Virus record (IMG/VR): IMGVR_UViG_3300044993_000286
Span: 1-47,689 of that record
Source: a virus
DNA length: 47,689 bases
Direction: 5' to 3' (one strand)
Within the stretch, counting starts at the first letter, position 1. Every line of letters starts with the position of its first letter. The notes below the pieces were generated by a model. That model worked only from the letters and a program-made list of their open reading frames with translations. It was not told the DNA's origin and did not search any database. The position numbers and the translations under genes are program-made. Positions 8,189 through 34,214 of the stretch are shown piece after piece.

Positions 8189-8194
8189 AATTGG

Positions 8195-8243: not shown

Positions 8244-8257
8244 GGTAAATATATAGG

Positions 8258-8673: not shown

Positions 8674-8706
8674 TTTGTTTCTCCTTATAATTGCTTGTTT
8701 AACGCA

Positions 8707-8751
8707 TTTAGAGAGTCAAGGTGGCACAAATACATTAAAAAGATACATTTA
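8707..8751 (-). promoter_or_regulatory. conserved R element copy R3 (candidate phage-specific promoter)
   Basis: The minus strand reads TAAATGTAT-N25-GACTCTCTAAA. Block spacing is identical to R1 and R2. It is intergenic, about 33 nt upstream of the start at 8673. Confidence 0.5.
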
Positions 8752-8775
8752 TACCACCTGCTCAAGATTTAAGGC

Positions 8776-9030: not shown

Positions 9031-9046
9031 GGTTATTCCTTTCTTT

Positions 9047-9688
9047 TTAGCTATCGGTATTCGGTTCGTAATTGGGAACTTTATACTCGGGTAGCAGTGA
9101 TTTATGTTGATTGGCTGTTATATAAGCCAATTCTTTTTGATTAAGGTCTTTTATTTGTATTGTTTTGATTTCTTGTTTCATTATAGCGGGATGGTCTTCG
9201 GGTAATTGAGTTACTGTTTTTGCCGTTTTAGATGTTTTATTAGTAATCAGTTCTAAGAGTTCAGAATTATTGGATAAGAAGTTTTTCAGCTTATCGTATT
9301 CTTCTTTAGTCAGTTTATCGATTGAATAGAGGTAATCTTCATCGGTAAGAAAGATAGGGTTAATACTGCGATTTACCGAATTAAACGATACTATTTTCTT
9401 TCGAGTACCGAGAACTTTATCGGCATCCTGAATTCTCCAACGGATAAACAGCTTCATTCTTTCAATCATTTTTTCAATTGTCTTGGCATGAATTGCAAGA
9501 GCTTTTGATTGTTCTTTATAGAAATTAGCACTGTTTTCCATAGTTTCAAGTTTCCAAGTGTAACTGTCAACTATTTCGGCATCCGTTTTATTCCGCTCCA
9601 CTCCCGCTATTAACTCGTTAAATTCTTCCTGAATTTCTTTAATAGCGGGATGCATAAGTTCATTGAGACTTACTTTTTTGAGTTCCAT
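9047..9688 (-). CDS. hypothetical helical protein (213 aa), possibly Gp157-like
   Basis: SD GGAGAAG. Long amphipathic helical N-terminal half. The Gp157 suggestion rests only on general resemblance and context. Confidence 0.6.
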   Translation of the reverse strand: MELKKVSLNELMHPAIKEIQEEFNELIAGVERNKTDAEIVDSYTWKLETMENSANFYKEQSKALAIHAKTIEKMIERMKLFIRWRIQDADKVLGTRKKIVSFNSVNRSINPIFLTDEDYLYSIDKLTKEEYDKLKNFLSNNSELLELITNKTSKTAKTVTQLPEDHPAIMKQEIKTIQIKDLNQKELAYITANQHKSLLPEYKVPNYEPNTDS

Positions 9689-10146
9689 AGCTTCTCCATT
9701 TGACCTTTAAGATTATTTCCTACTCCTATTGCTCTGATGATTGTGTTAATCGACATATTATGCTTTCTTGATAATTCTATAACACTGTAATGATATTTCA
9801 TTCCTTGTTTTTTCTTTTCTAAATATTCGTTATAGATTTCATAATCTCTGATTTTTGTAGTATCGATAAATCCTTTCTCTTTTAGCTCATCAAATGACAT
9901 TTGGTTTAATTCTTCAATGGTATATCCTTTGCCTTCTCGCATAATTCTTAAAACTCTAAAATCCGATAAGTTATATTTCAGACCTATATCAAATGCTGTT
10001 TCGTTTAAGCTTACATTTTTACGGTTTTCTCTGTACTTTTGAGCATCCAATCTGATTTTATTGTTTCTGAATGCTTTCCAGGGGACTAATCCCAATGAAT
10101 GTAATTCTGAAAATTTCAATGACTTATACATTTTGATTCCTTTCAT
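9670..10146 (-). CDS. putative helix-turn-helix (HTH) DNA-binding or transcription regulator (158 aa)
   Basis: The C-terminal IRDYEIYNEYLEKKKQGMKYHYSVIELSRKHNMSINTIIRAI resembles a sigma region 4 / Mor-type HTH. Alternative start at 10131. Confidence 0.45.
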   Translation of the reverse strand: MKGIKMYKSLKFSELHSLGLVPWKAFRNNKIRLDAQKYRENRKNVSLNETAFDIGLKYNLSDFRVLRIMREGKGYTIEELNQMSFDELKEKGFIDTTKIRDYEIYNEYLEKKKQGMKYHYSVIELSRKHNMSINTIIRAIGVGNNLKGQMEKLWNSKK

Positions 10147-10339
10147 TTTGTTGGATAATTGCTTCTATAATCTTTATTGAATTCTGATAACCTTCGATGT
10201 TATATTCATAAGCTTTAACGGCATCAGAATCAACGAAATTTGGAACTGCTTTTTCCAATTCCAAACGCTTTTTTTCGGATTCAAGAGACTTTAATAATGT
10301 CTCTTTAATCTTACACAATTCTTCTGTTTGGGTTGACAT
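10124..10339 (-). CDS. hypothetical coiled-coil protein (71 aa)
   Basis: SD GAGGAG directly upstream. Confidence 0.6.
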   Translation of the reverse strand: MSTQTEELCKIKETLLKSLESEKKRLELEKAVPNFVDSDAVKAYEYNIEGYQNSIKIIEAIIQQNERNQNV

Positions 10340-10624
10340 TTACTCCTCTCTTTCTATTAGTTTAATTAATGATTGAAGCATATCGACCTCCTCAAAGGTC
10401 AAATAAAACTGTTCTGCGTTTGGGTAGTAAGTCGGAAATAAGGTAACTTCCTTGTCTTTGGTATTCACATAAGCTATTTCGTCTCCATTATGCTCTAAAA
10501 CTATTCCCCATTCAAGGATGGGTTCTGTGGTAAAGTTAACCACAAGAGACCGTTTTTTACGAGCATGAAAGTTACTATTATGAAATTTTTGATTGAATTT
10601 CTCGATTATCTCATCAATCTTCAT
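10340..10624 (-). CDS. hypothetical protein (94 aa)
   Basis: SD GGAGA. Overlaps the upstream gene by 11 nt and abuts the next gene. Confidence 0.6.
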   Translation of the reverse strand: MKIDEIIEKFNQKFHNSNFHARKKRSLVVNFTTEPILEWGIVLEHNGDEIAYVNTKDKEVTLFPTYYPNAEQFYLTFEEVDMLQSLIKLIEREE

Positions 10625-10811
10625 CTTTTGTCTCCATTAATCTTTTTAATACTTCTTTTTGTGGTAATGCAATAAAATAACAATCTCCATTTAACATCAC
10701 CACACAAGCAGTATCCTCATCATCCTTTCTAATTTCCGATATATAGGATTTATTGAGATAAACAGTTGAATTCTTACCCCGTAGGGGGAATTCTATAAAT
10801 TCAGGTTTCAT
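10614..10811 (-). CDS. hypothetical protein (65 aa)
   Basis: SD GAGGAGAA. Overlaps its neighbours. Confidence 0.6.
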   Translation of the reverse strand: MKPEFIEFPLRGKNSTVYLNKSYISEIRKDDEDTACVVMLNGDCYFIALPQKEVLKRLMETKDED

Positions 10812-11092
10812 CTTTGTTTCTCCTCTTCTTTAACATCAAAAAGATACTCCGAGTATATATCAGACATTTCAGGTATCCATAAAGTATATTCTCGGTCAGG
10901 TTTAATGTCAAACGATTCTAAATATGTTCTTAAAATAAAATTGTCATTTTTACTCAAATGTGATAATAAATTTTTGAATATTGAATATAATGATTTTGGT
11001 ATAAAGCCAACACATGTCTTTCCATTATATTCAACCGTACATTTGATTAGATGTTTATACGCTACATCATCAAGTGATATTATTTTTAACAT
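10808..11092 (-). CDS. hypothetical protein (94 aa)
   Basis: The start was moved to MLKIISLDD, which follows the SD AAAGGAGGA. Confidence 0.6.
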   Translation of the reverse strand: MLKIISLDDVAYKHLIKCTVEYNGKTCVGFIPKSLYSIFKNLLSHLSKNDNFILRTYLESFDIKPDREYTLWIPEMSDIYSEYLFDVKEEEKQR

Positions 11093-11106
11093 CTTTGTTC
11101 CTCCTT

Positions 11107-11517
11107 TTAAATTAAATAAAATCTGCATAACGGAGGGTACATTCCCTCAATGCAGTACTGTGCCGGGTCAAATTCTACTTCGAAGCATTTTGCTTCTTTG
11201 CTGTAATAAACCGACACATTTATATCAGCGGGTATCTTGCATATTTTGTATGCTCTCTCGCCGACTAATAGTTCTATGTCGTCTCGCTCCTGCGACTTCT
11301 TCCATCTTATCTTCCTTTCCGGGACAAAGTCAGGGCGGAAATGAGAGAAATACGCCCAGAAATTAAAATTGTCCTTTTTGGCACATTCTACGAATTCCTG
11401 CAAACTTTCTATTTGATTACGCAGATTGTAGTAATCTACAATCCACATAATTTGATTTATTCTTTTCTTTTCTTTTTCAGAAAGATTAGTCATAATATCA
11501 ACTGCTGTTGCTTCCAT
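11107..11517 (-). CDS. hypothetical protein (136 aa)
   Basis: The start was moved to MEATAVDIM, which follows the SD AAAGGAAAA. The upstream extension runs through an intergenic hairpin. Confidence 0.6.
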   Translation of the reverse strand: MEATAVDIMTNLSEKEKKRINQIMWIVDYYNLRNQIESLQEFVECAKKDNFNFWAYFSHFRPDFVPERKIRWKKSQERDDIELLVGERAYKICKIPADINVSVYYSKEAKCFEVEFDPAQYCIEGMYPPLCRFYLI

Positions 11518-11554
11518 TGTTTTTTCCTTTTTTTTAATTGATTGTTTAATAACT

Positions 11555-11579
11555 CGGGAGACTTGCTGAAGGTCTCCCG
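11555..11579 (-). promoter_or_regulatory. GC-rich intergenic hairpin (8-bp stem, 9-nt loop)
   Basis: cgggagac (11555-62) pairs with gtctcccg (11572-79). No U-tract follows on either strand. Confidence 0.45.
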
Positions 11580-11660
11580 CCAAAATCTGACTGCTGTTTT
11601 TTACAAATAGTCTAACTAATAACAGGACTCCTTTCTTTGATTAGTGAATAAATTAGTGAA

Positions 11661-11969
11661 TTAAATAGTGATGAATTTGTCTTTTGCTAAAAAGTATTGT
11701 GGCTCATATTTTCCGTAAGAATCAACTCTGGCATTTTCAATAAGATATTCTTTAGTAGTATGATAAATCTTTCCCATAATCCAGATTGCAATATCTTTAA
11801 AGTTAAGAGTATCCACCATCTCTTTGTTTATTCCGATTTCTTGAGTTTTGTTCATTGTATGAACCGGACTGTAAATCTTTTTGATTAAGGTACCATTCTC
11901 GATTATACCTATCAATTTACGCTCTCCGTTCAGATGAAGAAAAACCTTAGAATTCACCGTTGTAATCAT
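11661..11969 (-). CDS. hypothetical protein (102 aa)
   Basis: ORF with an ATGA-type overlap with the RusA-like gene. Confidence 0.6.
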   Translation of the reverse strand: MITTVNSKVFLHLNGERKLIGIIENGTLIKKIYSPVHTMNKTQEIGINKEMVDTLNFKDIAIWIMGKIYHTTKEYLIENARVDSYGKYEPQYFLAKDKFITI

Positions 11970-12382
11970 AATAAAGTATCTCCTTCTGAAATGTTTTCCA
12001 CAAAGATTGTTGTTTTTGCTTTTTCACCAAAAGTCTTATAAGAATACAACTTAACGATATTGGCATCATTGTGATAGACAATTCCCTGCATTGCATCAAG
12101 AACCAACTTTTGCAAATTATCCAAATCGGGTTTGGTAATTTTTTCATTTACATTTTTTCGGGTCGATTGAGGTTTGATGAAATAAAATGTTATCGATATT
12201 GACAAAGGTTGGTTATTGTAAGGAATAAAATCTTGAGGTAATTGGTCTATCAATTGTTGTCTTATATGTGCTACTGCATTTGTTACTACGGGAGGTTGCC
12301 AGGAATGTATTTTCCCGTTATTAACCGAATGTCTCGCACTTTGTTTTGGTATCGGTTCTCCAAGAATCGTGAACTGTAACAT
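11966..12382 (-). CDS. rusA: RusA-like Holliday junction resolvase
   Basis: ILGEPIPKQSAR ... KPDLDNLQKLVLDAMQGIVYHNDANIV matches the RusA signature (PDxDNL..K...DAL......DD). The start was set at MLQFTILG after the SD AAAGGAA. Confidence 0.75.
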   Translation of the reverse strand: MLQFTILGEPIPKQSARHSVNNGKIHSWQPPVVTNAVAHIRQQLIDQLPQDFIPYNNQPLSISITFYFIKPQSTRKNVNEKITKPDLDNLQKLVLDAMQGIVYHNDANIVKLYSYKTFGEKAKTTIFVENISEGDTLL

Positions 12383-12403
12383 AAGTATTCCTTTGTTAAT
12401 ACA

Positions 12404-12423
12404 GCTCCCTCTTTCGAGGGAGC
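12404..12423 (-). promoter_or_regulatory. very stable GC hairpin with a GAAA tetraloop on the minus-strand RNA
   Basis: gctccctc (12404-11) pairs with gagggagc (12416-23). It is intergenic, between 12435..12863 and the RusA-like gene, and has no clear U-tract. Confidence 0.5.
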
Positions 12424-12434
12424 CTGCAAATTGA

Positions 12435-12863
12435 TTAGTACTTTCCGAATTTAGTTCCGTCTTCGTGATGGAACTTATTGAACAACTCGGTAGTATTGTA
12501 CCATTTGTCTTCATATCTGAAAAGTTGGTGAGTGGAAATACCCGTAATGGCTTTACCGTATCTTACACCGTTCTTCTTCACATTACCGTAAACCAAAACG
12601 GTTCCTTTTTTGACTTTCTTAGCCAACTCTTCAAATGTATAAGGACGAGGACGACTGTCTGTTTTCTCAACAGCATCACCGAGTATCTCATACTTCTTTG
12701 CACTTCTGTAGTACTCAATGCCTTCTATCTCATTATTGATGAGAATATTCATTGAGTTATCATCAAAACGGGTAACGATTGCTACTGCATCATTTCCCCA
12801 ATCTTTGCAGGTAAATTTCTTTCCTGCCAACAAAGCGATTGCTTCTTTTTTCGTCATTTTCAT
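12435..12863 (-). CDS. hypothetical protein (142 aa)
   Basis: ORF overlapping the stop of the primase-helicase gene (ATGA). Confidence 0.6.
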   Translation of the reverse strand: MKMTKKEAIALLAGKKFTCKDWGNDAVAIVTRFDDNSMNILINNEIEGIEYYRSAKKYEILGDAVEKTDSRPRPYTFEELAKKVKKGTVLVYGNVKKNGVRYGKAITGISTHQLFRYEDKWYNTTELFNKFHHEDGTKFGKY

Positions 12864-14632
12864 ATTGTCTCCATTCTGAAATTATGTTTGTTGAATCGTA
12901 GGTTTAATGTTATTTCAGCTTCATCCCTACTTGCTGAAGCTGTGAGTGTTCTGTAAACTGATTCTCTTTCACCTTCCCATGAAAGAATCTTATCGAACTT
13001 TTGAGCTATTGCGCTGCTTCCTATGGATGAATGAACATCCAATCGCTTTACTTCTCCTTTCCAATTGGGAGAAGAAGCTTGTTTGGAAATGTGCAATATA
13101 CAACCGATAATACAATCAGTTCGTTGTGCTACTTCTTTGAGTCTATTGGCAAGAATACTCGTTTTTGCGGTAATATCGGTAACTCCGGGTACATCCAAAC
13201 CATCGAGAGTATCAACGATTACTATTTGCGGTTGATTATCGATTATCATCTTTTCGAATTGTTCTATCGTAGGAGGAATCACAAGCATTTGGATATGCTT
13301 GATTTTATCCGAAAGAGAATTGTTCGATTGCTTGTAGTATTCTTCAACCTGTTTCTTAGTCATACCATGAGCAATTTGAATAAATCGTCTGTATGCTAAA
13401 TTTTTATGGTTTTCGAATGTACAATAAATCGATTTCATTCTGGTAAGTTTGACTAAAAGATTTTGGATAAATCCCGACTTGCCTATCTTGGTAGGACCTT
13501 GAATTCCAAAAACTTCTCCGGGATAAAATTTATAGACATATTTACCGGGAAATGCTTCGTTTAAATCAAAAGATTTTGATTCGAAATCACTTCTGATGAA
13601 ATTAACAAAGTCCTTTTCAGCATCGGCAGGTGTGATTAAATCCAATGTATAATTCTTTTTACGATAAAAGATACATTTATCCGAACAGTATTTACTCATT
13701 AAGTAATCTGCACAACTGTAAGTATATCCTTTATCGTATGTATCGTCCACTATTCTTTTCACTTCATAAGGTTCCAAAGAATCAGCCCAATCGATTAAGA
13801 GTTTAGCAACAGCTTCTCTGGGCAATCCCGCTCTTCGCCAAGCTGAAGACATTCTCAAGATTTTATGATGTCTTGTTCCCGCTTCAGCTCCTTCACGATA
13901 CATATTCGTGATGCAAGTAGCAATGGTACTTTGGTCTTTATTTTCGTTACTCGGAATAGAAGACAATTTAATGGGTATTTCCTCTATCAGATGTGTGAAA
14001 TCTTTTTCGAATGGTTCAAGATTCCATTTGAAATTTAATCTGGGTTCTTTGGCAATCCGATTAAAATCTTCGGTATTACCGTTAAAGAACTCATCTTGAG
14101 TAAGTGGGATTTTGAATAATCCCACTTTCTCGTTAAATGTATTAGGAACCCGAATCATCGAAGCAAAAGACGACCATACGGCTTTGTCTCCTTCGGGAAA
14201 TAATCTGCCAAAATTTTGACTTACCAATATTGGTAAAGAATTTGACGGATTAAATTTGAATAATTGAGGAAGAGCTATGTGATATCCTGAACCTGAAAAA
14301 TAGTATTCGATACTCTCATAAGGAATATCATAATCACTATTCATTCTGTAACAGAATTCTCTCGCTCTTCTTAGAACAAATTCAGAAGTATCCTTTCCTT
14401 TGTCTATATCAACTATCAGTTTCCTGAAATAAACATTGCCTCTGAATCCACGAATTGTTTTCACTCCTCGTGAATAATGGTCGTTGATTTCATTATCAAA
14501 TAAGTAATAAGACATGAAAAGCGTATTTCTATGTCTTGCGTAAACAGGTACTAATTTGGGTACTTCTTCAAGAGGAACTACCTTTCTGTTGACCTTTTCC
14601 GAATTAATCTCGACATAGAATGGTACTTTCAT
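12860..14632 (-). CDS. bifunctional AEP-type primase (PrimPol-like) / SF4 RecA-fold helicase
   Basis: The N-terminal part has AEP motifs: LIVDIDKG (DxD), FSGSGYHIA (sGxGxH) and MIRVPNTFNEK. The C-terminal part has a P-loop (GPTKIGKSGF) and Walker B (QIVIVDTLD). Confidence 0.8.
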   Translation of the reverse strand: MKVPFYVEINSEKVNRKVVPLEEVPKLVPVYARHRNTLFMSYYLFDNEINDHYSRGVKTIRGFRGNVYFRKLIVDIDKGKDTSEFVLRRAREFCYRMNSDYDIPYESIEYYFSGSGYHIALPQLFKFNPSNSLPILVSQNFGRLFPEGDKAVWSSFASMIRVPNTFNEKVGLFKIPLTQDEFFNGNTEDFNRIAKEPRLNFKWNLEPFEKDFTHLIEEIPIKLSSIPSNENKDQSTIATCITNMYREGAEAGTRHHKILRMSSAWRRAGLPREAVAKLLIDWADSLEPYEVKRIVDDTYDKGYTYSCADYLMSKYCSDKCIFYRKKNYTLDLITPADAEKDFVNFIRSDFESKSFDLNEAFPGKYVYKFYPGEVFGIQGPTKIGKSGFIQNLLVKLTRMKSIYCTFENHKNLAYRRFIQIAHGMTKKQVEEYYKQSNNSLSDKIKHIQMLVIPPTIEQFEKMIIDNQPQIVIVDTLDGLDVPGVTDITAKTSILANRLKEVAQRTDCIIGCILHISKQASSPNWKGEVKRLDVHSSIGSSAIAQKFDKILSWEGERESVYRTLTASASRDEAEITLNLRFNKHNFRMETI

Positions 14633-14633
14633 G

Positions 14634-15191
14634 TTATATCACCGGTTCGTTATCTGATTCGGGGAAAGGAACAGATTCATCATCAGACAGCTTAGGAGTG
14701 TATTTATACACTTTGTCTTTCGACACATCTTTTATGAATTTCTGTTCCAATTTAAGCATGTCTTTATCGAAATTTGAATATGTCCGATAAAGCTCTTCAC
14801 CGTTATCTTTAGTCGAGAGATATTTCAGAACATAAATTTCTTTCTCGATGCATTTTTGCCATACATCATCGGGAATTCTTCCCGCATCATCGGTCTCAAA
14901 TTTAAGACCCGGATTACATGCAAGAATAAATTCCTTGATTTTGAAAGCACTTCCCCATCCTTCCACTACATTATTGATATTCTTTTTGTAATTACCGTCA
15001 ATAAAGAGTTTTGAAGTTTGTGTTGTACCGTCTTTCTTTTCTCTTTCAATATCAATTTCAAGAGAAATATCCACCATCTTACCGCTATTTGGGTTAGTAC
15101 GAAACATTGTTACTTCAATGTTCTTAACCGTAAAGGGCATAATGATGTATTTGGATTTCTTAAATCCGCTATCAATACTACTAACAGCCAT
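14634..15191 (-). CDS. putative single-stranded DNA-binding protein (185 aa)
   Basis: It lies between the helicase and the Sak4-like ATPase. The acidic C-terminal tail (SDDESVPFPESDNEPVI) resembles SSB / T7 gp2.5 tails. No canonical OB-fold motif was verified. Confidence 0.35.
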   Translation of the reverse strand: MAVSSIDSGFKKSKYIIMPFTVKNIEVTMFRTNPNSGKMVDISLEIDIEREKKDGTTQTSKLFIDGNYKKNINNVVEGWGSAFKIKEFILACNPGLKFETDDAGRIPDDVWQKCIEKEIYVLKYLSTKDNGEELYRTYSNFDKDMLKLEQKFIKDVSKDKVYKYTPKLSDDESVPFPESDNEPVI

Positions 15192-15208
15192 TGTAGATTC
15201 CTTTCTTT

Positions 15209-15922
15209 TTATGAGTTGTATTCGTTGATTTTATCCAAGATAATTTTGAGGTCGTTTGGTTCTTCAAAATCGAGTTGGTCTATGGGAGATTTAGCGGTAT
15301 TAGTACCATCGGAATTAGTAACGACATAGTACTCAAGCTTTCCGTTTGCTTTTCTTGATTGACCAAGAAGTACATTGGTAAACATACCTTCTATGGTGAT
15401 TTTTTCGTCAAGCATTTTACCGATAGTTTTAGCTTTGATAATACCGTCTGAACTTTCAGCATGATGCAGAAAAACAACGGTAATATCATCTCTTAATTCT
15501 TGTGCAGTAGTAAGAACAAGAAAAAAGTTTTGTCCTATTTCGCTGAATTTTTCGTATCCTTTTTCTTTTGCTCTTGCCATGAACTCATACGCCATTAAGT
15601 ATTGCGAATCATCTATGATGATTGTTTTTATATGAGTCAATCGTTCACTGATAAGTTTAAGAGTTTTACTGACCGTTTCGGAAGCTTCCATGAATACTTT
15701 GGGATTTTTCTTCATGGTCTCAGGTCCAACTGCTTGTTTGAATATAATCTTTCGGTTTCCCTGAACCTCTCCGTGAGATTCAAAATACTTAGACCTCCAG
15801 TTTTTAAACGGGAGGTCTTTGTTAATTATTGAAATCAGATAAGTTGTTTTCGGGTCAAGATTACGGATTGATGTTGTCTTTCCGCAACCCGACGGTCCGA
15901 TGTACAGAATACTTCTGCTCAT
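15209..15922 (-). CDS. Sak4-like / AAA_24-type P-loop ATPase (recombination or replication accessory)
   Basis: N-terminal Walker A (ILYIGPSGCGKTT), Walker B (TIIIDDSQYL), and a size and context typical of phage Sak4-like ATPases. Strong SD GAAAGGAG. Confidence 0.6.
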   Translation of the reverse strand: MSRSILYIGPSGCGKTTSIRNLDPKTTYLISIINKDLPFKNWRSKYFESHGEVQGNRKIIFKQAVGPETMKKNPKVFMEASETVSKTLKLISERLTHIKTIIIDDSQYLMAYEFMARAKEKGYEKFSEIGQNFFLVLTTAQELRDDITVVFLHHAESSDGIIKAKTIGKMLDEKITIEGMFTNVLLGQSRKANGKLEYYVVTNSDGTNTAKSPIDQLDFEEPNDLKIILDKINEYNS

Positions 15923-16898
15923 CTTTTTGCTCCTTTCTTTTTAGTTTTGTACATGATTTACAAGTTTTAGAATTTGTGGGTACAAATATAGCACTACACT
16001 CATCACAAATTTTATATCCGTATTCTTCCGTAATGCTTTCTGCCCATTCTGTGATTAATTTTTCGGAAAAATATGAAGTAATTTTTACACATTCATACTT
16101 GTCATTTTTTATATTCCCGTATCGATAAATTGGAATATTCGGATTATGTGAACCATTAGCCATGTCTATCACAAGCTTGTCTATGTAATACACTTCAGGA
16201 TAGAATAATTTCGGAGTTGAAAATCCAAAATCATCAAATTTTGGAATATAAACCGTATTCCTTTTAACAGCGGGAGTGTGAGGTAAATGGATGTCCTTAT
16301 AGGTATTAAAGAATTGTCTGAACAGCTTAATTTGAACTTTTAATTCATTCAAATTAGCAAATGCATCCAAGCTGTGATAATCGTAATAACATACTCCAAA
16401 ATTGAATGCTTTGCATCCTAAATTTGTCAAGTATGATATATCCGATATCGAACCTATTCCTATTCTGAATCCTGCATCTATTAATAAGTTACGAGTATCA
16501 GTATCATCAAAAGAATACAGAACGACATCATTTCCTTTTCTGTCAAATTCAAATATCCAATTATATTTCTTATCGGTTTTGAATTCTTTAGCGGATGAAT
16601 TTCCCTGCTCTTCATCCGTTGTAAGTAATATGTCATAAGGCAAATCAAACAATTCTTCCATAATAACATATACACCTAAACGGTCATCCAATACGGGTGA
16701 ATAAAATACATGTTTGTGTGGAAATTTTACTTCTATAGCATGTGTACATTTACACACACTATCGAGATGGGCTACCGCAAGGATAACTCCACCTCTGTCC
16801 CAAAATAGGTTTCTTCCTTGTTTAAGCAAAGAGGGATACTTCGTAGTGAAGTCCTTCTCCGGAAGAAACATCAGTTCTTTCATTTTTTGTATATCCAT
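15861..16898 (-). CDS. putative co-catalytic metallohydrolase (M20/M28/M42-like) with a C-terminal zinc ribbon
   Basis: Ordered motifs VAHLDSV (HxD), PVLDDRLGVYV (D), TTDEEQG (EE) and YYDYHS (H). The C-terminus has CDECS...CKSC. Confidence 0.45.
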   Translation of the reverse strand: MDIQKMKELMFLPEKDFTTKYPSLLKQGRNLFWDRGGVILAVAHLDSVCKCTHAIEVKFPHKHVFYSPVLDDRLGVYVIMEELFDLPYDILLTTDEEQGNSSAKEFKTDKKYNWIFEFDRKGNDVVLYSFDDTDTRNLLIDAGFRIGIGSISDISYLTNLGCKAFNFGVCYYDYHSLDAFANLNELKVQIKLFRQFFNTYKDIHLPHTPAVKRNTVYIPKFDDFGFSTPKLFYPEVYYIDKLVIDMANGSHNPNIPIYRYGNIKNDKYECVKITSYFSEKLITEWAESITEEYGYKICDECSAIFVPTNSKTCKSCTKLKRKEQKDEQKYSVHRTVGLRKDNINP

Positions 16899-18216
16899 TT
16901 TTTCCTTTCTTCAAATATTCTTTTGTTACGAATCCTTCTCCTTCTGCATCTCTGAATATAACCGCATCTTCCCGAAGTATATATTGATGCATTATGTGGC
17001 TGTAAATAAGGTCTTCAGTCCATTCCAATTGTCCGTTTACGGTCATTGCATAAGATGGTCTTACATAAATACCATGTCTTTTGATAAAGACTATTTTACC
17101 TGCTTTCAGCATTTCTTCGATTATATCAGGATGGCAGAGTTGAGTAGGTCTGTCTTCGGTTGTCCATACATTATAAGGATGAAACGAAAGTTTTTCCGAA
17201 AATGCGCATTGCTTAACAAGTTTAACACACTGTTGACATAATGTATGTTCTTCATTGTCAACAATTTTCGTAACAAAATTTTGCGGTGTATCTTCTTCTC
17301 CACAATGAGTGCATTTAATTCGAACAATATCCGTATTCAAATCAATGGAAGCAATTTCGGAAGCATCATCGGAAAATAAATATCCGTGACCTTCTTCATT
17401 AATCCAAATACGGTCTTTCGCATGTCCCTTGTTAATCAAGGTAATATACTCAAAGTCCGTATCCAGAAATTCAGATATTGCTTCTTTGAGATTAAACAAA
17501 GTGAGGTTTTTACCGTTAAAATAACCGTTAAAGAGAATATAACCTCCGTTTGTTCTCTCAAATAACCAACATCTTCCGAGAGTATAACCTTCCATATATA
17601 AATGAGTATGGTCGGTTAAGAATTCAGCGGGAGGATTTTTCTTATAAAACAACAGAGCTTTGAATTTTTCATTACTTATTATCGTTTCTCTCGCATCAAC
17701 ACGACCGTTCCAAAAACAGGAATTGGAATCTCCGTATTCACCCGCAAGCCATATTTTTTCTTTTCTCGGATTAAAGACTCTGAAATATATAATCGTCTCT
17801 CCCTCTTTCGAATCAAGAACATTTCCTATTTCGGAAAGTTCTTTTTGTGTAAGCTTATAGTTCCATAATTTATGAAACCATTTTGAGATTTGTCTGTTAA
17901 GTCTTACACCTTTCGAATTCCTGTTTTTTTTAAGATTGGGAAACTCTTCCAAATCGATTGATACATCTAATATTGTTTTTGGATTGTTGTAGATGTACAC
18001 TTGAGCCAATGACTCTAAATCTTTCCCGTAAATCTCTTTGTACCATTTCCCAATCGGATGAGTGGTAAGATTATCGGTAGTTATTGGCGGCATTGTTGAG
18101 AAAATATTTCTCATTATACTGAGACACATATCATACAATGTTTTATATCTTTTCTCAATTGCCGAATTACTTTTCACAGTTAACGGATATACAATGTTTT
18201 CTTCTAAGATTTTCAT
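16822..18216 (-). CDS. hypothetical protein (464 aa) with an internal Cys4 zinc ribbon
   Basis: SD GAGGAG. Contains CTHCGEED...CQQC. No family recognised. Confidence 0.7.
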   Translation of the reverse strand: MKILEENIVYPLTVKSNSAIEKRYKTLYDMCLSIMRNIFSTMPPITTDNLTTHPIGKWYKEIYGKDLESLAQVYIYNNPKTILDVSIDLEEFPNLKKNRNSKGVRLNRQISKWFHKLWNYKLTQKELSEIGNVLDSKEGETIIYFRVFNPRKEKIWLAGEYGDSNSCFWNGRVDARETIISNEKFKALLFYKKNPPAEFLTDHTHLYMEGYTLGRCWLFERTNGGYILFNGYFNGKNLTLFNLKEAISEFLDTDFEYITLINKGHAKDRIWINEEGHGYLFSDDASEIASIDLNTDIVRIKCTHCGEEDTPQNFVTKIVDNEEHTLCQQCVKLVKQCAFSEKLSFHPYNVWTTEDRPTQLCHPDIIEEMLKAGKIVFIKRHGIYVRPSYAMTVNGQLEWTEDLIYSHIMHQYILREDAVIFRDAEGEGFVTKEYLKKGKNGYTKNERTDVSSGEGLHYEVSLFA

Positions 18217-18556
18217 CTTTTTTTCTCCTCATGTAGTTTATATATTCTTTTAAAAGTTCAAATATTCTCTCCAATTCAGTATCAACTGTATCATCAAACC
18301 ACTTAGTTTTTTCCGTAATATAGTTATATCTTACAATATGTGGAACAATGATAGAGTTTGTTTCGGGAAAATATTCAATATTTTCTTCACTGTATTTTTC
18401 CAAATAAACATCCAACGATATTTCTTCCATATTAAAATCATAGCAAATCGTATTCACCGAAAAATAATACATAGACATCGAAGATTGATTGCTTATCCAT
18501 TCTTCAACTTTATGATGAAGATTACGAATATCATTTTTTTTTATTTCGATTTTCAT
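18167..18556 (-). CDS. hypothetical protein, tandem paralog family member 1 (129 aa)
   Basis: Aligns by eye with 18553..18903: MKIEIKK / MEIEKRK, YYFSVNTIC / YSYSVGNTC, EYFPETNSIIVPHIVRY / EWFPEKDKIVIPYICKY. Confidence 0.65.
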   Translation of the reverse strand: MKIEIKKNDIRNLHHKVEEWISNQSSMSMYYFSVNTICYDFNMEEISLDVYLEKYSEENIEYFPETNSIIVPHIVRYNYITEKTKWFDDTVDTELERIFELLKEYINYMRRKKDENLRRKHCISVNCEK

Positions 18557-18903
18557 TTTAATATCCTTATCTCTTTGGTAAGAATTCTAAACATTCTTCT
18601 GATTTTCTCAATTTTTTCTTCATCTACAAATTGTGTTGTAAAAGAAAGAATATGAGTATTTACATCATACTTACAGATATAAGGAATGACTATCTTGTCT
18701 TTTTCAGGAAACCATTCGGGATTTTTACGAAGAATATGTTTATATTCTTCTATCGGCATAATCGGTGGTGTTCTGCCACGAACATGACAAGTATTACCTA
18801 CCGAATAACTGTAAGTATTCATTTCAGCTCTTTTCAGAAGCCAGTTATAAAGAGCTTCTTCGGTAATTTCTTTAATGGGTTTTTTCCTTTTTTCTATTTC
18901 CAT
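18553..18903 (-). CDS. hypothetical protein, tandem paralog family member 2 (116 aa)
   Basis: See 18167..18556. ATGA overlap. Confidence 0.65.
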   Translation of the reverse strand: MEIEKRKKPIKEITEEALYNWLLKRAEMNTYSYSVGNTCHVRGRTPPIMPIEEYKHILRKNPEWFPEKDKIVIPYICKYDVNTHILSFTTQFVDEEKIEKIRRMFRILTKEIRILK

Positions 18904-19325
18904 GATTGTTTCCTTTCATGGATGTAAGAAACGATTAAATTCTTATTTTCATTAAGGATATCATGAACGATATACTTATATCTTCGAGCAATAGGTTCTA
19001 ACCGTCTCGATATCCAATAATCGACACTGACTCTTATCGGTTTATTCCTTATGGGAAAACCTTTATAATCAGTTTCGATATAGATTTCCAACAACGTTAT
19101 CGGTTCATTATAATTTTTCGGTTGATAAATAAGATGATACCGATAAACATTTGTTGTATTACTTACCTTTTTTATTTGCAAGGTATCGCGGTTATAACGA
19201 AATACCCTTCGTTCAACCGCTTTTAATTTTATATATTGATTCAATACATCCGTCATTTCTGCCGGAGTATAGAAACAATATATTGTTTTTCCTTTTCTAT
19301 TTTCAATTTCCATATCTTTCCTCAT
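18894..19325 (-). CDS. hypothetical protein (143 aa), possible distant third member of the paralog family
   Basis: It shares only the N-terminal MEIENRKGK motif with the two downstream paralogs. Alternative start at 19313. Confidence 0.6.
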   Translation of the reverse strand: MRKDMEIENRKGKTIYCFYTPAEMTDVLNQYIKLKAVERRVFRYNRDTLQIKKVSNTTNVYRYHLIYQPKNYNEPITLLEIYIETDYKGFPIRNKPIRVSVDYWISRRLEPIARRYKYIVHDILNENKNLIVSYIHERKQSWK

Positions 19326-19458
19326 TTTTTCTTTTTAAGTACTCGATAAATTCATTGACTCTTTTAAATGTTCTTTTTGATTTAAGTTTATTTGAAACAT
19401 TATATTCTTTTACTACAAATTTACCTAACCAAAAAGATATTACGAATCTTTTGTTCAT
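19303..19458 (-). CDS. small basic hypothetical protein (51 aa), below the ORF-track length cutoff
   Basis: Hand translated: MNKRFVISFWLGKFVVKEYNVSNKLKSKRTFKRVNEFIEYLKRKNEERYGN. SD AAAGGAAAA. The stop overlaps the next start. Confidence 0.35.
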   Translation of the reverse strand: MNKRFVISFWLGKFVVKEYNVSNKLKSKRTFKRVNEFIEYLKRKNEERYGN

Positions 19459-19478
19459 TTTTTTCCTTTCAATTGAAA

Positions 19479-19520
19479 TAAAAAAAAGGCTCCTACTTGA
19501 AATATTTCTTTCGGAGCCTC
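19479..19520 (-). terminator. rho-independent terminator (minus strand)
   Basis: The minus strand reads aggctcc-N19-ggagcct followed by TTTTTTTT. It lies directly after gene 19539..20042. Confidence 0.6.
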
Positions 19521-19538
19521 ACCATACAACCGGAGAAA

Positions 19539-20042
19539 TTATGACTCTAAAATTCTTTTCACTTCCCCGATTATGTCGTTTTCTCCCCTTTCTATCAAAT
19601 CCATATACTTTTTCAGTATATGGATATTTACCGGCATATTTGCAAAGTAGTCAGGGTCTTTATCCTGAGCTACTAATGCAATAACCGATAGATTATCGAG
19701 GAGAAATTCCAGCGTTTCCTGAACTGATTTTTGAAGAGTCTTGCATGCTTTTACTGCATGCGAATATTCTTTTAACCAGTATTGTTCCCTTTCCGGGAAC
19801 ATTTGGAAGAGTATTTTCGTGCAATCAACCATTTCTTTGGTTTCTTGCACTTTTTGCTCGTCTGTCTTATCGAACAGAATAATATTCTGTTCTTCTAAAG
19901 ACAAACTATTGAAAAACATGAGTTCTAACAACTTTGCAGGTGTTAGAGACTCTATAATTTTGTAAAATTGTTCTTTTGTCAGTTTTAGTACTGACACCAA
20001 TAGTGTCAGTACCTCAACCGAAAAATTATTCAACTTATCCAT
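19539..20042 (-). CDS. hypothetical protein (167 aa)
   Basis: The start was set at MDKLNNFSVE after the SD AAGGGGGAA. ATGGATAA overlap with the upstream gene. Confidence 0.6.
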   Translation of the reverse strand: MDKLNNFSVEVLTLLVSVLKLTKEQFYKIIESLTPAKLLELMFFNSLSLEEQNIILFDKTDEQKVQETKEMVDCTKILFQMFPEREQYWLKEYSHAVKACKTLQKSVQETLEFLLDNLSVIALVAQDKDPDYFANMPVNIHILKKYMDLIERGENDIIGEVKRILES

Positions 20043-20328
20043 TTTGTTCCCCCTTTTTTTCTTTTTTGGGTGTGTGAAACTGTAACGCGTCATACGCATC
20101 TACCCATGCGTCGTGACGCGAATTTGCTTTCTCCTCTTCCAGGTGATTTTCAATCACCCAGAAGATATATCCCGCAATTCCTGCGAGGAATATTGCCGCA
20201 GAAGTTACAAGTATTGCTTCATTAGCTGGGACCGGTATGTCCCACATTTCTACAAGCTTTTGGAAAAGCTCGAAGAGAGCGATAAATATTATCGATTCTA
20301 TGATTACCAGTTTATGTATTCTTTTCAT
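20035..20328 (-). CDS. hypothetical membrane protein (97 aa, two hydrophobic helices)
   Basis: Hydrophobic segments LVIIESIIFIALFELF and ILVTSAAIFLAGIAGYIFWVI. SD context AATCGGAGAA. Confidence 0.6.
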   Translation of the reverse strand: MKRIHKLVIIESIIFIALFELFQKLVEMWDIPVPANEAILVTSAAIFLAGIAGYIFWVIENHLEEEKANSRHDAWVDAYDALQFHTPKKEKKGEQNG

Positions 20329-20366
20329 TTTTTTCTCCGATTATTTTTGGTTTGTGATTTTGTTAG

Positions 20367-20480
20367 TTATAGTTCTGCTGCTCTTACGATTTGTATAATG
20401 AAAAACGTAATTGCAGTCAAAATACCCAATAGCCCGAAGGCTATTAATGTTCCGAGTAACACTTTATCCTCTTTATCCAT
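20367..20480 (-). CDS. small single-pass membrane peptide (37 aa), below the ORF-track cutoff
   Basis: Hand translated: MDKEDKVLLGTLIAFGLLGILTAITFFIIQIVRAAEL. SD context AATCGGAGAA 7 nt upstream. Confidence 0.4.
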   Translation of the reverse strand: MDKEDKVLLGTLIAFGLLGILTAITFFIIQIVRAAEL

Positions 20481-20591
20481 GTTTTCTTTCTCCGATTTTT
20501 GATTAGTTAATAGCGAGGGGCGACATCTTTCAAAAGATGTCATTATTTGTAAATAAAGCCTCTATAAGCCACGATTTTTCCAAAGGGTATA

Positions 20592-20657
20592 TAAATGTAT
20601 GCCTTTGAATCGTTCGTGTCTCTATGAGGCTCTAATGAAGAAATTGGGCTATATTTG
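20592..20657 (+). promoter_or_regulatory. conserved R element copy R1 (candidate promoter), oriented antisense to the surrounding early genes
   Basis: TAAATGTATGC-N20-TATGAGGCTCTAATGAAGAAAT aligns without gaps to 34149..34214, down to a TTG at the position of the endolysin ATG. Confidence 0.5.
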
Positions 20658-20670
20658 ATTGCTGTCTTTT

Positions 20671-20700
20671 ACAAAATAGGGGCATTATTCAAATGCCCCT
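20671..20700 (-). terminator. rho-independent terminator (minus strand)
   Basis: The minus strand reads aggggcat-ttgaata-atgcccct followed by ATTTTGT. Confidence 0.6.
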
Positions 20701-20710
20701 TAAATATCAA

Positions 20711-20781
20711 AAGCTACTGCCTTACTAATGTCAGCAAACTCTTACCACATGGTAAGTACTGACTTCAGGTCAGTAGCTTTA
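20711..20781. other. 71-nt rod-like imperfect hairpin in noncoding DNA
   Basis: The outer 10-bp stem is aaagctactg / cagtagcttt. Inner stems are gtcag/ctgac and cttacc/ggtaag. Confidence 0.5.
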
Positions 20782-20782
20782 T

Positions 20783-20849
20783 AAATTGAAAAAGCCGTTG
20801 AACTATTTTCAGCACTCCCCAATTTGGGGGCTGATAAGAACAACGGCTT
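20783..20849 (-). terminator. compound hairpin terminator (minus strand) after the second early gene
   Basis: aagccgttg (20792-800) pairs with caacggctt (20841-49) around an inner tcagc..cccc/gggg..gctga hairpin. On the minus strand it is followed by TTTTTCAATTT. Confidence 0.55.
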
Positions 20850-20889
20850 ATTAAATGAGCAGTTTATAGACTTGCTCAGGTCTTAAAGA

Positions 20890-21555
20890 TTATTCCTCCT
20901 CCTCCTCTATTAGTCTAAAATTATGTTCTGTTAATTGCATGTTGTTTTCTTTGTCGATTTCTATGGTCGTAATGATGACCATGTCCTCAACTTCAAGAAT
21001 TTGTGTCGAATTGAATAATGGGTATAAACCCATTTTTATTTTCAATTCGTCTTTTTTAATTAAGATTGTTTGAAGTCGTTTCACAGATACTGCAGGATTT
21101 CTTAAAACGCATGCCGGTTGTGTTTCCACGATAACACATTTGCTGTTCGACATTTTTATTTCTAACAATCCAAATGTGGGTCTAAAACCCAGCACTGATT
21201 TTGCGTATTTAATATACGCAAAGCAGTCTTGAGTTGGGAAAAGAGGTGCAATTTGAACATATCTGGGTAGGAATTGTTTGATGAATTTTAACGGTATTTT
21301 CCCTAACCCAACAAACCCTTGAAGTTCGGTTTCGTATTGGTAAAAGTTTTTTGATTCTTCCTCGATGAGTATTAACTCCCCACTGAGGCAATAAACCCCA
21401 TGGGGAAGTTTTCTATTGTCGAAGGTTACAATAGGACGTCGCCCATTTAATCCGGTAATGTTGAATCCGTACTCCGGAGTTATTAACTCCAGAGTTGTTC
21501 TATCGTTCAATGATGATAAGTTGCGAATAAGTTTTTTATATTCTTGCATTTTCAT
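20890..21555 (-). CDS. hypothetical early protein (221 aa) with an acidic EEEEE C-terminus
   Basis: SD context AATCGGAGAA. Second gene after the divergent control region. Confidence 0.7.
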   Translation of the reverse strand: MKMQEYKKLIRNLSSLNDRTTLELITPEYGFNITGLNGRRPIVTFDNRKLPHGVYCLSGELILIEEESKNFYQYETELQGFVGLGKIPLKFIKQFLPRYVQIAPLFPTQDCFAYIKYAKSVLGFRPTFGLLEIKMSNSKCVIVETQPACVLRNPAVSVKRLQTILIKKDELKIKMGLYPLFNSTQILEVEDMVIITTIEIDKENNMQLTEHNFRLIEEEEE

Positions 21556-21605
21556 GGCTTTCTCCGATTGTTTTTTTGTTGATTGTTTTTTGTTAATTAA
21601 TTGAC

Positions 21606-21677
21606 AGCCCCCGAAAACCCTTTTGTGTGGAATCCAGGGGCTATCGAGTTCATACGGGGAAGAATTACTTCTTCCCC
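21606..21677 (-). promoter_or_regulatory. two GC-rich hairpins between the first two early genes
   Basis: agcccc (21606-11) pairs with ggggct (21637-42). ggggaagaa (21656-64) pairs with ttcttcccc (21669-77), and the stop codon of 21665..21922 lies in that loop. No U-tracts. Confidence 0.4.
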
Positions 21678-21922
21678 ATATAGAGGGACATATCCGCTCG
21701 GTTTTCCCAAGCAGATTCGAGCCTTCTGCGTGCTTCCTCTATACTTATATCTTCGCACGCCAAGAGTCGATACTCAAAAGACGAACCATTGTAAACGTAG
21801 AGCCCTTTGAGTTTTTCACCATCCTTCGTGGTTTCCCAATCGAAAAGACAAACTATCTCTTTCCCCGTTTGTCTATCAATTGTCTTTATCGCACCACGAG
21901 TTCTTAGTCGTTGTGGCACCAT
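21665..21922 (-). CDS. first early gene product, hypothetical (85 aa)
   Basis: Very strong SD AAGGAGGT 7 nt upstream. It is the first ORF downstream of the divergent region and looks richer in G+C than its neighbours. Confidence 0.7.
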   Translation of the reverse strand: MVPQRLRTRGAIKTIDRQTGKEIVCLFDWETTKDGEKLKGLYVYNGSSFEYRLLACEDISIEEARRRLESAWENRADMSLYMGKK

Positions 21923-22006
21923 TTTTTACCTCCTTTTTTTTAACTGAATTAATTAATTATCAAAGACAAAGGGGTGGGTAGGTGGAAGGGATATTTCCCG
22001 CCTCAA

Positions 22007-22035
22007 GTCTTACACAATTTTTATCGTTTTTTCAA
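22007..22035 (-). promoter_or_regulatory. candidate sigma70-like promoter for the early block (TTGAAA-17-TAAGAC)
   Basis: On the minus strand, TTGAAA is the reverse complement of 22030-35 and TAAGAC of 22007-12, with a 17-nt spacer. The -10 lacks the final T. Confidence 0.3.
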
Positions 22036-22155
22036 CGGTTGAAACGATTTTTTCGGAGTGTTGTAGGACTGTATCAACCCGCTATTAACAAAATTTTAAA
22101 AAATATTTTTTAGGGCAAAAATTCGTACACTTATCATTTTTTCTTGCATATAGTC

Positions 22156-22184
22156 TTGACAAAAGTTATTTTTGCATATAAGAT
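22156..22184 (+). promoter_or_regulatory. candidate sigma70-like promoter for the late block (TTGACA-17-TAAGAT)
   Basis: TTGACA at 22156-61 and TAAGAT at 22179-84, with a 17-nt spacer. About 140 nt upstream of the small terminase start. Confidence 0.4.
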
Positions 22185-22221
22185 TTCCCCCCGCAAGGAA
22201 AAACATATATTAGAACTAATA

Positions 22222-22325
22222 CTTATATAAGTATTGTTATATAGAATATCTTATATAGAATACTTAATACTAAGACTTATATAGGATATCCGAATAAGAA
22301 TACTTAAAGACTTAAGACTTATATG
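22222..22325 (+). repeat. AT-rich direct repeats (CTTATATA x4; longer unit AGAATACTTAA..TAAGACTTATAT x2) running into the small terminase start codon
   Basis: CTTATAT(A/G) at 22222, 22250, 22276 and 22318. The 27-29-nt units are at 22257-22283 and 22297-22325. Confidence 0.7.
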
Positions 22326-23018
22326 ATAGTACATAATAAGAAGATTGGTAAGAGATTATGGAAGAAATGTTATGCTTATACTATAGAAGAAGCTAAAGAA
22401 AGAGGATTAGAATGGAAAGACTTAAGAGATGAAGAAATAAGTGAATATGTTAAGACTGATGATGATTATATAGTAAAGTTAATACTGAAGAAAAGATATA
22501 ACAAAGACTTATGGATTAAAACAGAATTTGGTAGTATATTTGGAAGACAGAAATTGTTAGTTAATAAAGAATTAATTCCTTACGGTGATTGGAAAGCTAA
22601 AAAGCTTACAAAAAAGAAAAGATTTCCGATTGTAGTGGATTACATAGTAGCATGTATTTTAACGAATAGCACTATTAATCCCGATGTTATCGGTAATATC
22701 TTGGGATTGAAATATCGAAATACTAATTTGATTTGGAAGAATCTTATGAATCAACCTGAAGTAAGACAAATGGTACAAAAATCTTTAGTTGAAAGACTGT
22801 CGGATTTAAATGTTGACGAAGGTAAAGTGGTGAATTTAATAGATGATGCGATAGTAATTGCCAAAAAGAAGGGAAATGCTTTTGCTATTCTTAAAGCTGC
22901 TGAATTGTTGGGCAAATATTTAGGAATGGATGCTAAAACTGTTATCAGAGAGACTCATTCGACTGACAGTGAAGGCAATATTTCGAAGATATTAAAGGAA
23001 ATATCGATTGAAGGATAA
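22323..23018 (+). CDS. putative terminase small subunit / DNA-binding protein (231 aa)
   Basis: It lies immediately upstream of, and overlaps, the large terminase gene. It is a basic protein of suitable size. No SD. The call is by position only. Confidence 0.4.
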   Translation: MIVHNKKIGKRLWKKCYAYTIEEAKERGLEWKDLRDEEISEYVKTDDDYIVKLILKKRYNKDLWIKTEFGSIFGRQKLLVNKELIPYGDWKAKKLTKKKRFPIVVDYIVACILTNSTINPDVIGNILGLKYRNTNLIWKNLMNQPEVRQMVQKSLVERLSDLNVDEGKVVNLIDDAIVIAKKKGNAFAILKAAELLGKYLGMDAKTVIRETHSTDSEGNISKILKEISIEG

Positions 23019-29366: not shown

Positions 29367-29370
29367 ACGA

Positions 29371-29389
29371 GGGGAGGTGTATCCTCCCC
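29371..29389 (+). terminator. GC hairpin attenuator or partial terminator after the capsid genes
   Basis: ggggagg-tgtat-cctcccc followed by AATTTAT. Confidence 0.45.
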
Positions 29390-29401
29390 AATTTATACAT
29401 T

Positions 29402-33874: not shown

Positions 33875-34147
33875 ATGACAACACTTAACATAAGACCTTT
33901 TCAAATAGTCAAGCTTGGTAATGTTACTTATTATGCCACTAAAGCGAATATAGAAGTAACCAATGTAGAACTATTCACTAAATGTGATGTCAGAATCTTT
34001 TTGAAAGATTCCCAAAACAATACTCTTTACATCCATACATTGGAAGTCTCACCCGAAGAGTATCAACTTTGGAATGAGGATAATTACTTGGTTGACTTAA
34101 TATGTTCAAAATTAGGGCTTATAAGAGACGAACAGACTGAAGGATAG
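33875..34147 (+). CDS. hypothetical protein (90 aa)
   Basis: ORF immediately after the fibre gene. Confidence 0.55.
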   Translation: MTTLNIRPFQIVKLGNVTYYATKANIEVTNVELFTKCDVRIFLKDSQNNTLYIHTLEVSPEEYQLWNEDNYLVDLICSKLGLIRDEQTEG

Positions 34148-34148
34148 G

Positions 34149-34214
34149 TAAATGTATGCTTAACAATCAATCGCCTTACTACGAGGCTCTAAAGAAGAAA
34201 TAGAGGTATGTATG
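34149..34214 (+). promoter_or_regulatory. conserved R element copy R2 (candidate internal promoter plus leader of the lysis / internal-protein / RNA polymerase genes)
   Basis: TAAATGTATGC-N20-TACGAGGCTCTAAAGAAGAAAT-AGAGGTATGT-ATG. It occupies the only intergenic gap in the 22.3-34.1 kb stretch of the late block. Confidence 0.5.

Follow-up and report, generated by a model that had tools for sequence, protein, structure and literature searches.

A three-block intergenic element at fixed spacing in a podovirus-like phage and its relatives

What is the short repeated sequence that stands in front of the endolysin gene of this phage and recurs at two other places in its genome? A preliminary description, made from the letters of the DNA, had read it as a phage-specific promoter or regulator site that splits the late genes into two units. 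The stretch analysed, hereafter the window (47,689 nt), is a complete circular assembly of ~47,562 bp with an exact terminal direct repeat of 127 nt (1-127 = 47563-47689). The 47.6-kb genome is podovirus-like, with a G+C content of 34%, and encodes a P22-type portal, an SU10-type capsid protein and a large terminase. Virion and lysis genes lie on the plus strand from 22323 to 45593, and a block of minus-strand genes runs from 21922 down to 7095. A plus-strand ORF of 82 aa (7588-7836) with a plausible protein sequence may also be a real gene; minus-strand genes 7339..7662 and 7856..8227 leave a gap of 193 nt in which it sits, close to the region around ~7100 where the plus- and minus-strand blocks converge.

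Searching GenBank phages at the DNA level gave no match to the window, and the portal found just three weak matches among them (21-30% identity over 22-31% of the protein). The Logan assembly of SRR35364708 contains the same contig, and relatives of the capsid protein at ~50% identity are common in metagenomes, Tara Oceans records among these. Among the minus-strand proteins, Pfam and PHROGs assign only Sak4, RusA, MazG, a peptidase and an AAA_25 domain (AAA ATPase); the majority of the early proteins are without a family match, including the product of 9670..10146, which had been called an HTH protein. The same two collections identified no DNA-binding regulator, sigma factor or second polymerase among the early proteins. 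The phage lineage is without a cultured member. A conserved spaced element common to several of its members is a concrete handle on its gene-expression programme.

Architecture of the element

Three copies, R1, R2 and R3, share three blocks (A, B and C) in the fixed arrangement TATAAG-N23-TAAATGTAT-N25-GAnnCTCTAA, with start-to-start distances of 29 nt from A to B and 38 nt from B to C (Table 1). Block A, exactly 29 nt upstream of block B in all three, reads CCTCTATAAGCC in R1, GGCTTATAAGAG in R2 and GGCTTATAAGCC in R3. The 23-base pattern of the three blocks has three exact matches in the window and none in 100 shuffled versions of it, even at up to three mismatches. With the same tolerance, the two-block pattern TAAATGTAT-N25-GAnnCTCTAA finds three sites only, against a shuffle mean of 0.53, and three matches were reached in one of 100 shuffles. 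Pairwise identities over the 87-nt core are 68%, 55% and 51%, compared with 27 +/- 5% for random pairs from the window, and 34 of the 87 columns are invariant. A scan of the window with a sequence-only model gave no fourth copy; its next best match (E = 0.12, not significant) is a partial block-C-like stretch, CCTCTCTCGTTGCGTTC, at 8186-8236 on the minus strand ahead of the MazG-like gene.

The alignments on which the preliminary description rested were reproduced. Without gaps, R2 34149..34201 and R1 20592..20644 are identical over the left 11 nt and match at 10 of 20 spacer positions and at 20 of 22 positions of the right block, and R3 on the minus strand (8751..8707) carries TAAATGTAT followed by GA-nn-CTCTAAA at the same offset. 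The core that had been delimited, 34149..34214, is real, but the true span of R2 is ~34106..34214; block A had been missed, and it is the sole block to share its TATAAG core with the late-promoter array considered below. The gap that holds R2 is not strictly the only one in the late genes, as had been stated, for another of 35 nt, with a hairpin, lies at 29367..29401.

Table 1. Positions of the element copies and of the late promoter in the window
Feature	Position	Strand	Remarks
R1, whole element	20549..20657	+	Model match 86.4 bits; set among minus-strand genes
R1, block A core TATAAG	20563..20568	+	
R1, block B TAAATGTAT	20592..20600	+	
R1, block C GAGGCTCTAATGAAGAAAT	20626..20644	+	
R2, whole element	34106..34214	+	Model match 82.9 bits, E = 1.4e-23; order: A-rich tract, block A, block B, block C, Shine-Dalgarno, endolysin ATG
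R2, block A GGCTTATAAGAG	34116..34127	+	TATAAG at 34120..34125; within the last codons of a 90-aa ORF (33875..34147)
R2, block B TAAATGTAT	34149..34157	+	
R2, block C GAGGCTCTAAAGAAGAAAT	34183..34201	+	AGAGG comes next, then the ATG at 34212
R3, whole element	8687..8794	-	Model match 70.4 bits
R3, block A GGCTTATAAGCC	8784..8773	-	Overlaps the stop codon of an 84-aa ORF
R3, block B TAAATGTAT	8751..8743	-	
R3, block C GACTCTCTAA	8717..8708	-	ATG of a 65-aa ORF at 8673
Late promoter and array	22156..22325	+	Six TATAAG cores within 150 nt, then a terS-like ORF

In R2, block C ends 10 nt before the next ATG; from the end of CTCTAA to the next ATG there are 34 nt in R3 and 9 nt in a copy from another phage (L126, below), so that in these three copies the distance from CTCTAA lies between 9 and 34 nt. 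The ATG has a Shine-Dalgarno sequence, and the ORFs upstream terminate within block A or in spacer 1, between blocks A and B. Downstream of R2 lie the endolysin gene, whose product matches Amidase_2 in agreement with its earlier naming, and then genes for four membrane proteins; R3 is followed by five small genes, one of them MazG-like. R1 is oriented away from its neighbouring genes.

Read from the sequence, blocks A and C resemble weak direct repeats of CTnTAnAAG. When the copies were checked for terminal inverted repeats of the MITE type, the flank of block A paired partially with block C in R1 and R2, and no such pairing was seen in R3 or L126. Two partial likenesses occur elsewhere in the window. 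A 32-nt stretch at 5373-5404, in the giant ORF described below, has 81% identity to R2 over block A and spacer 1; neither of the other two blocks comes after it, and the likeness is therefore probably due to chance. An interrupted form of the block A palindrome, GGCTGTTATATAAGCC, is found at 9112-9128 inside a 213-aa gene, ~340 nt upstream of R3.

Copies in other phages and the pattern of conservation

Three contigs from other phages, L019, L031 and L126, each carry one further copy, so that six are known, nearly all beside a gene start. The L126 copy is the one real match among 92 returned by a two-block scan of metagenome contigs. It has all three blocks and is identical to R2 at 61 of 90 positions, while the other 91 matches reach at most 45 of 90 against any copy, which is chance level because the pattern itself forces 17 bases. 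In L126, CTCTAA runs directly into a GGAG Shine-Dalgarno sequence ahead of a 63-aa ORF, an upstream 121-aa ORF terminates in spacer 1, and the flanking genes have no homolog in the window.

The sequence-only model, trained on four copies, recovered the other two. The first (L031:12649-12542, E = 1.4e-8) belongs to a syntenic relative with a giant ORF of 5262 aa, sits where the window has overlapping genes and is inverted with respect to the genes that flank it, such that the reverse complement of its block A gives GAGG and the ATG of gene 12636. The second (L019:3-99, E = 7.8e-5) is orthologous to R1; of the relatives identified, L019 is the nearest, at 74% for the capsid and 61% for the terS-like protein. 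The L019 contig terminates inside block A of its own copy, at positions 1-3, as assemblers do at repeats, and the L019 genome thus probably has several copies. Two other features of L031 were recorded. Adjoining the inverted copy, 12470-12545 (+) looks like part of a tRNA: it has an acceptor stem and a T-arm (GGTTCGAGTCC) but lacks an anticodon arm, and ARAGORN called no tRNA in this region. Within an 809-aa gene, 15206-15284 (+) matches the model weakly (E = 0.011) and has 13 bases (TAAATGCGTTAAA) in common with the extension of block C in R3.

No true copy was found in 185,579 bacterial and archaeal genomes or in IMG/VR. The two-block pattern gave 35 matches in genome contigs, none real (best 45/90 identity), and the three-block pattern gave none in the metagenome and genome contig collections, L126 having escaped that scan because its block A reads TACAAG. 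Viral contigs yielded eight matches at the N25 spacing and likewise eight at a control spacing of N24; all 16 have flanks unlike those of the R copies, and none has block A. There is no copy ahead of the endolysin gene in L031 or L035-37, no element in the relatives located through the major capsid protein (L020-L028), whose G+C content differs, and no copy at 80 viral loci encoding a nuclease like that of L126. Three phages located through their endolysins (L029, L032 and L038) proved to be unrelated. The element is a real, conserved and phage-restricted cis-element.

Comparison of R1 with its L019 ortholog locates the conservation. Block A plus CGA is identical at 14 of 15 positions, AGG plus block B at 9 of 15 and block C with its extension at 20 of 25, whereas spacer 1 retains 6 of 14 and spacer 2, between blocks B and C, 4 of 21, and the alignment has no indel. 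Blocks kept while spacers drift without any indel point to selection on spaced blocks. Over ~95 nt, the alignment of all six copies has a single 1-nt gap (in L031), and its consensus retains T..AAG, AGG, T.AA..TA and gA..cTCTAA. Outside the window, block B varies most, reading TCAAAGTAC in L019 and TAA-GATAC in L031; the block A palindrome is not retained in L126 or L019. Such block-wise conservation with free spacers is what contacts by a protein at set distances would be expected to leave.

Recognition and candidate functions

Folding was examined on both strands. Relative to shuffles, the z values (sense, antisense) are -4.2 and -4.4 for R1, 0.0 and -1.0 for R2, -3.8 and -1.7 for R3, -2.4 and -0.6 for L126, -1.5 and -2.6 for L031, and +0.5 and -0.1 for L019. 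In the sense of the local mRNA, four of the six copies therefore have a stable hairpin (R1 -4.4, R3 -3.8, L126 -2.4, L031 -2.6), and R2 and L019 fold no better than shuffles. The hairpins are not in register, since block B occupies the loop in R1 and the 5' arm of the stem in R3 and L126, and loops range from 4 to 24 nt. RNAalifold found no consensus pair among the six copies, and Rfam gave no match at gathering score over the whole window and no relevant match at E <= 1 in 20300..22400. The stems of R3 and L126 rely on G-U pairs and fold worse on the opposite strand, which hints that block B is transcribed. Folded as DNA, R1 has strong dyad symmetry (z -3.7 and -5.2) and R2 has none. Taken together, the strict spacing, the free spacers and the lack of a common fold are more easily reconciled with a site read as double-stranded DNA than with one read as RNA.

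Structure is also present next to R1. A G+C-rich hairpin at 20678..20700, 33 nt after its block C, is terminator-like for the minus-strand gene 20890..21555, and its T-run on the plus strand is only weak. The 190 nt from 20700 to 20890, between R1 and the end of a 221-aa gene, are non-coding and contain at least four hairpins (e.g. 20751-20766, 20767-20785 and 20794-20848) with no Rfam match; a small RNA is one possibility, a structured 3' UTR another.

The blocks do not match ordinary host promoters. A sigma-70 consensus scan of 7000..23000 found no site inside R1 or R3, and the hexamers 17 bp upstream of TATAAA in these two copies, read from the sequence, are not TTGACA-like. As the preliminary description had recognized, the blocks do not fit sigma-70 in consensus or spacing; its elements must lie 16-18 bp apart. 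A good sigma-70-like promoter is located elsewhere, with TTGACA-17-TAAGAT at 22156-22184, and is conserved in L019. Downstream of it, CTTATATAG / TATATAAG recurs five or six times; the corresponding array motif in L019 is TATATAATAAG. Near intergenic DNA, TATAAG occurs 13 times against 3.5 expected, and six of the 13 lie in this array. Through this clustering at the late promoter, the core of block A is common to a likely protein-binding array, and the array at 22156..22325 is possibly linked in function to the element. In L019, the R1 ortholog stands ~150 nt upstream of the late promoter and faces the late genes, whereas in the window two minus-strand genes (20890-21922) and the structured 190-nt spacer intervene between R1 and that promoter. 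A literature search for TATAAG in phage promoters returned nothing relevant. Several other consensuses were compared and set aside. Those of sigma-54, the T4 MotA box, the IHF site and the T4 late TATAAATA box do not fit all copies, and neither does the P1 C1 operator, which shares GCTCTAAT; an ECF/sigma-E promoter could use TCTAA as its -10, but its -35 would read AAT, not AAC.

The genome also encodes a candidate polymerase. An ORF of 3018 aa crosses the assembly junction (45620-47562 joined to 1-7114) and contains RAP...HP...GGADNDID at residues 1260-1300, with DNDID at residue 1295. Members of its family have 2600-4100 aa, and their most conserved stretch, R-x-P...G..R...H...GGAD-x-D-x-D, surrounds DNDID; among 24 of them, R-x-P, G, H and GGAD-x-D-x-D vary little or not at all. 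This motif resembles the catalytic loop of the RNA polymerase beta-prime subunit and the DFDID of crAss gp66. Against 177,635 PDB sequences, the sole match of the family profile was 6VR4_A, the phi14:2 gp66 RNA polymerase, aligned on the catalytic DFDID at a non-significant E = 4.4. A word-index homolog search with the giant protein found nothing, and a single-sequence AlphaFold model of it (pLDDT 35) was unusable. The naming of this protein as a giant polymerase in the preliminary description gains some support from the conserved motif and from the identity of the PDB match, non-significant as that match is; the evidence is suggestive of a crAss gp66-like RNA polymerase.

We tentatively favour the view that the element is a phage-specific promoter or operator cassette of ~95-110 bp, acting at the DNA level for a phage-specific factor. 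A phage-directed transcription complex would contact the spaced blocks on double-stranded DNA. Block A, with its core T..AAG (usually TATAAG) and an A-tract upstream, would be the binding site of the factor; block B (TAAATGTAT, with TATAAAT in two copies) would be the most -10-like part; and block C, GAnnCTCTAA with its extension, would form the initial transcribed or leader region directly before the ribosome-binding site. The lysis cassette, the ejection proteins and the giant gene would then form a second late unit that R2 starts or boosts, transcription of the last five minus-strand genes would come from R3, and R1 would be directed toward the late operon through two early genes. Copy number, fixed spacing, conservation by blocks, phage restriction and the position beside start codons are shown; we infer the reading of the element as DNA, the start of transcription inside it and the identity of the protein that reads it. 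Fixed spacing, the six-copy alignment, the ortholog footprint, the position relative to start codons, the enrichment of TATAAG and the restriction to phages all count in favour of such a cassette, and the middle promoters of the crAss-like phage phi14:2, treated below, offer a precedent. Counting against it, no block pair has sigma-70 spacing or consensus, block B is least conserved in L019 and L031, which is odd for a -10 element, four of six copies have the mRNA-sense hairpin, and no regulator, sigma factor or second polymerase was identified among the early proteins. The original interpretation is thus partly supported: a phage-specific repeat under block-wise selection, with R2 and R3 pointing at the next gene, agrees with it, but R1 faces away from its neighbours and the L031 copy is inverted. 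On the favoured reading, the element predicts the starts of transcription units, one of them holding the lysis cassette and the giant polymerase-like gene, and can serve as bait for finding the regulator.

Those hairpins could instead mean that the element acts in RNA, as an intercistronic leader in which a stem-loop covers block B while block C stays single-stranded before the ribosome-binding site, and this is possible, if on the unlikely side; it might then affect the processing or stability of the mRNA, control translation or act in antitermination of the nut/boxA kind, none of which is rated higher. Stable local-mRNA-sense hairpins in R1, R3, L126 and L031, the U-G pairs in the stems of R3 and L126, which fold less well when the opposite strand is taken, the way in which block C abuts the Shine-Dalgarno sequence, and the termination of upstream ORFs in block A or spacer 1 all agree with an RNA role, and GCTCTAA resembles the boxA sequence, GCTCTTTA. 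Against these stand the absence of RNAalifold consensus pairs and of an Rfam match, the differing hairpin registers, the two copies (R2 and L019) without a significant fold, and a sequence conserved in one orientation even though R1 and the L031 copy are antisense to local genes. A doubtful proposal is that the element is a spreading junction cassette that mediates exchange of modules between phages, with any role in expression secondary. The copies do mark points where relatives differ in gene content (adjoining R1, R2 and the L031 copy): the L126 copy, 61/90 identical to R2, lies between genes without window homologs, the endolysin genes of L031 and L035-37 have no preceding copy, the inverted L031 copy stands where window genes overlap, two extra genes separate R1 from the late promoter relative to L019, and the L019 contig terminates inside block A. 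The PeSL cassettes of T4-like phages have been described as exchange points between unrelated sequences (PMC4122927). There are, however, just three copies per genome and no clear terminal inverted repeats or target duplications, and conserved blocks amid randomized spacers imply a sequence-specific function beyond homology for recombination. A junction cassette is in any case compatible with a promoter rather than a strict alternative to it, and the element marks points of gene-module exchange.

A special case of the promoter reading, in which a giant gp66-like virion RNA polymerase encoded by the phage itself would use the copies as its promoters, appears very unlikely. The invariant R-x-P, G, H and GGAD-x-D-x-D of the giant family, its sole PDB match on the catalytic DFDID of gp66 (6VR4), blocks that match no host consensus, and a number of copies equal to the three early promoters of N4 are consistent with it. 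That PDB match is not significant (E = 4.4), however, R2 precedes lysis and virion genes rather than early genes, and the fixed hairpin of the N4 type is absent; moreover, the gp66 transcripts of phi14:2 share no common upstream motif (bioRxiv 10.1101/2020.03.07.982082). A related proposal, quite unlikely in our estimate, is that the cassette represents the first defined promoter class for a two-barrel virion RNA polymerase of the crAss/gp66 type or for a host polymerase reprogrammed by a phage factor; the accompanying idea, held at the same low level, is that recognition there would depend on three blocks over ~70 bp and not on a -35/-10 pair. Should a gp66-like polymerase read the element, a known gap would be filled, since that enzyme is still without a recognized promoter motif. 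It is highly improbable that the copies serve some other DNA transaction, as a replication origin, a packaging site or an architectural binding site. A seemingly flexible orientation, the fixed spacing and the strong dyad symmetry of R1 (z -3.7 and -5.2) would suit such a role, but three dispersed copies beside start codons are atypical for an origin or pac site, R2 is without dyad symmetry and the copies have no iteron arrays.

Comparison with known phage elements

The C-dependent late promoters of Mu and the Ogr-dependent late promoters of P2 are few in number and combine a weak or absent -35 with a conserved site further upstream, whose distance from a -10-like box is fixed. The element likewise has a handful of copies, a weak or absent -35, a conserved upstream site and a -10-like box, but it differs in its extra conserved downstream block C and in the loss of the block A palindrome from L126 and L019. 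The virion polymerase of N4 uses three promoters with stems of 5-7 bp and 3-nt loops, located at the genome end and all facing early genes. Three copies, hairpin potential in some of them and a candidate giant virion polymerase recall this system, whereas loops of 4 to 24 nt in differing registers, and two copies without a significant fold, do not. Lambda nut sites and the boxB-boxA sites of rrn operons place a hairpin before a short single-stranded box, in few copies, each after a promoter. Here too a hairpin can precede a conserved box (GCTCTAA compared with GCTCTTTA), but the T-run of boxA is absent, the hairpin is not conserved and the phage is not known to have an N-like protein.

PeSL cassettes combine a promoter with a stem-loop and are points of exchange between unrelated sequences in T4-like phages (PMC4122927, PMC2839356). 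Their promoter is a recognizable sigma-70 early promoter, and hyperplastic regions contain many copies of them (PMC2839356, PMC4122927), in contrast to the three copies, the missing sigma-70 consensus and the inconstant stem-loop of the present element. Both are nevertheless small multi-copy intergenic cassettes found at junctions between unrelated genes and common to several phages; the flanks of the L126 copy place the element, as a multi-copy cassette, between non-homologous genes in different phages.

The middle promoters of the crAss-like phage phi14:2 are an 'extended tripartite motif' read by the host polymerase (bioRxiv 10.1101/2020.03.07.982082). An alignment of P070, P075, P108 and P110 gives their blocks as an A-rich tract, TTG at -33 and TAnnTTTG at -7, which is the Bacteroidota host consensus. 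This motif is in none of the six copies of the element, whose blocks share no sequence with those of phi14:2 and fit no host consensus, and the phi14:2 promoters have mapped transcription starts. In organization the two are alike: each has few copies per genome, with several fixed-spacing blocks that extend further than a plain -35/-10 pair, and each precedes middle or late genes in a phage that has a giant DxDxD virion protein.
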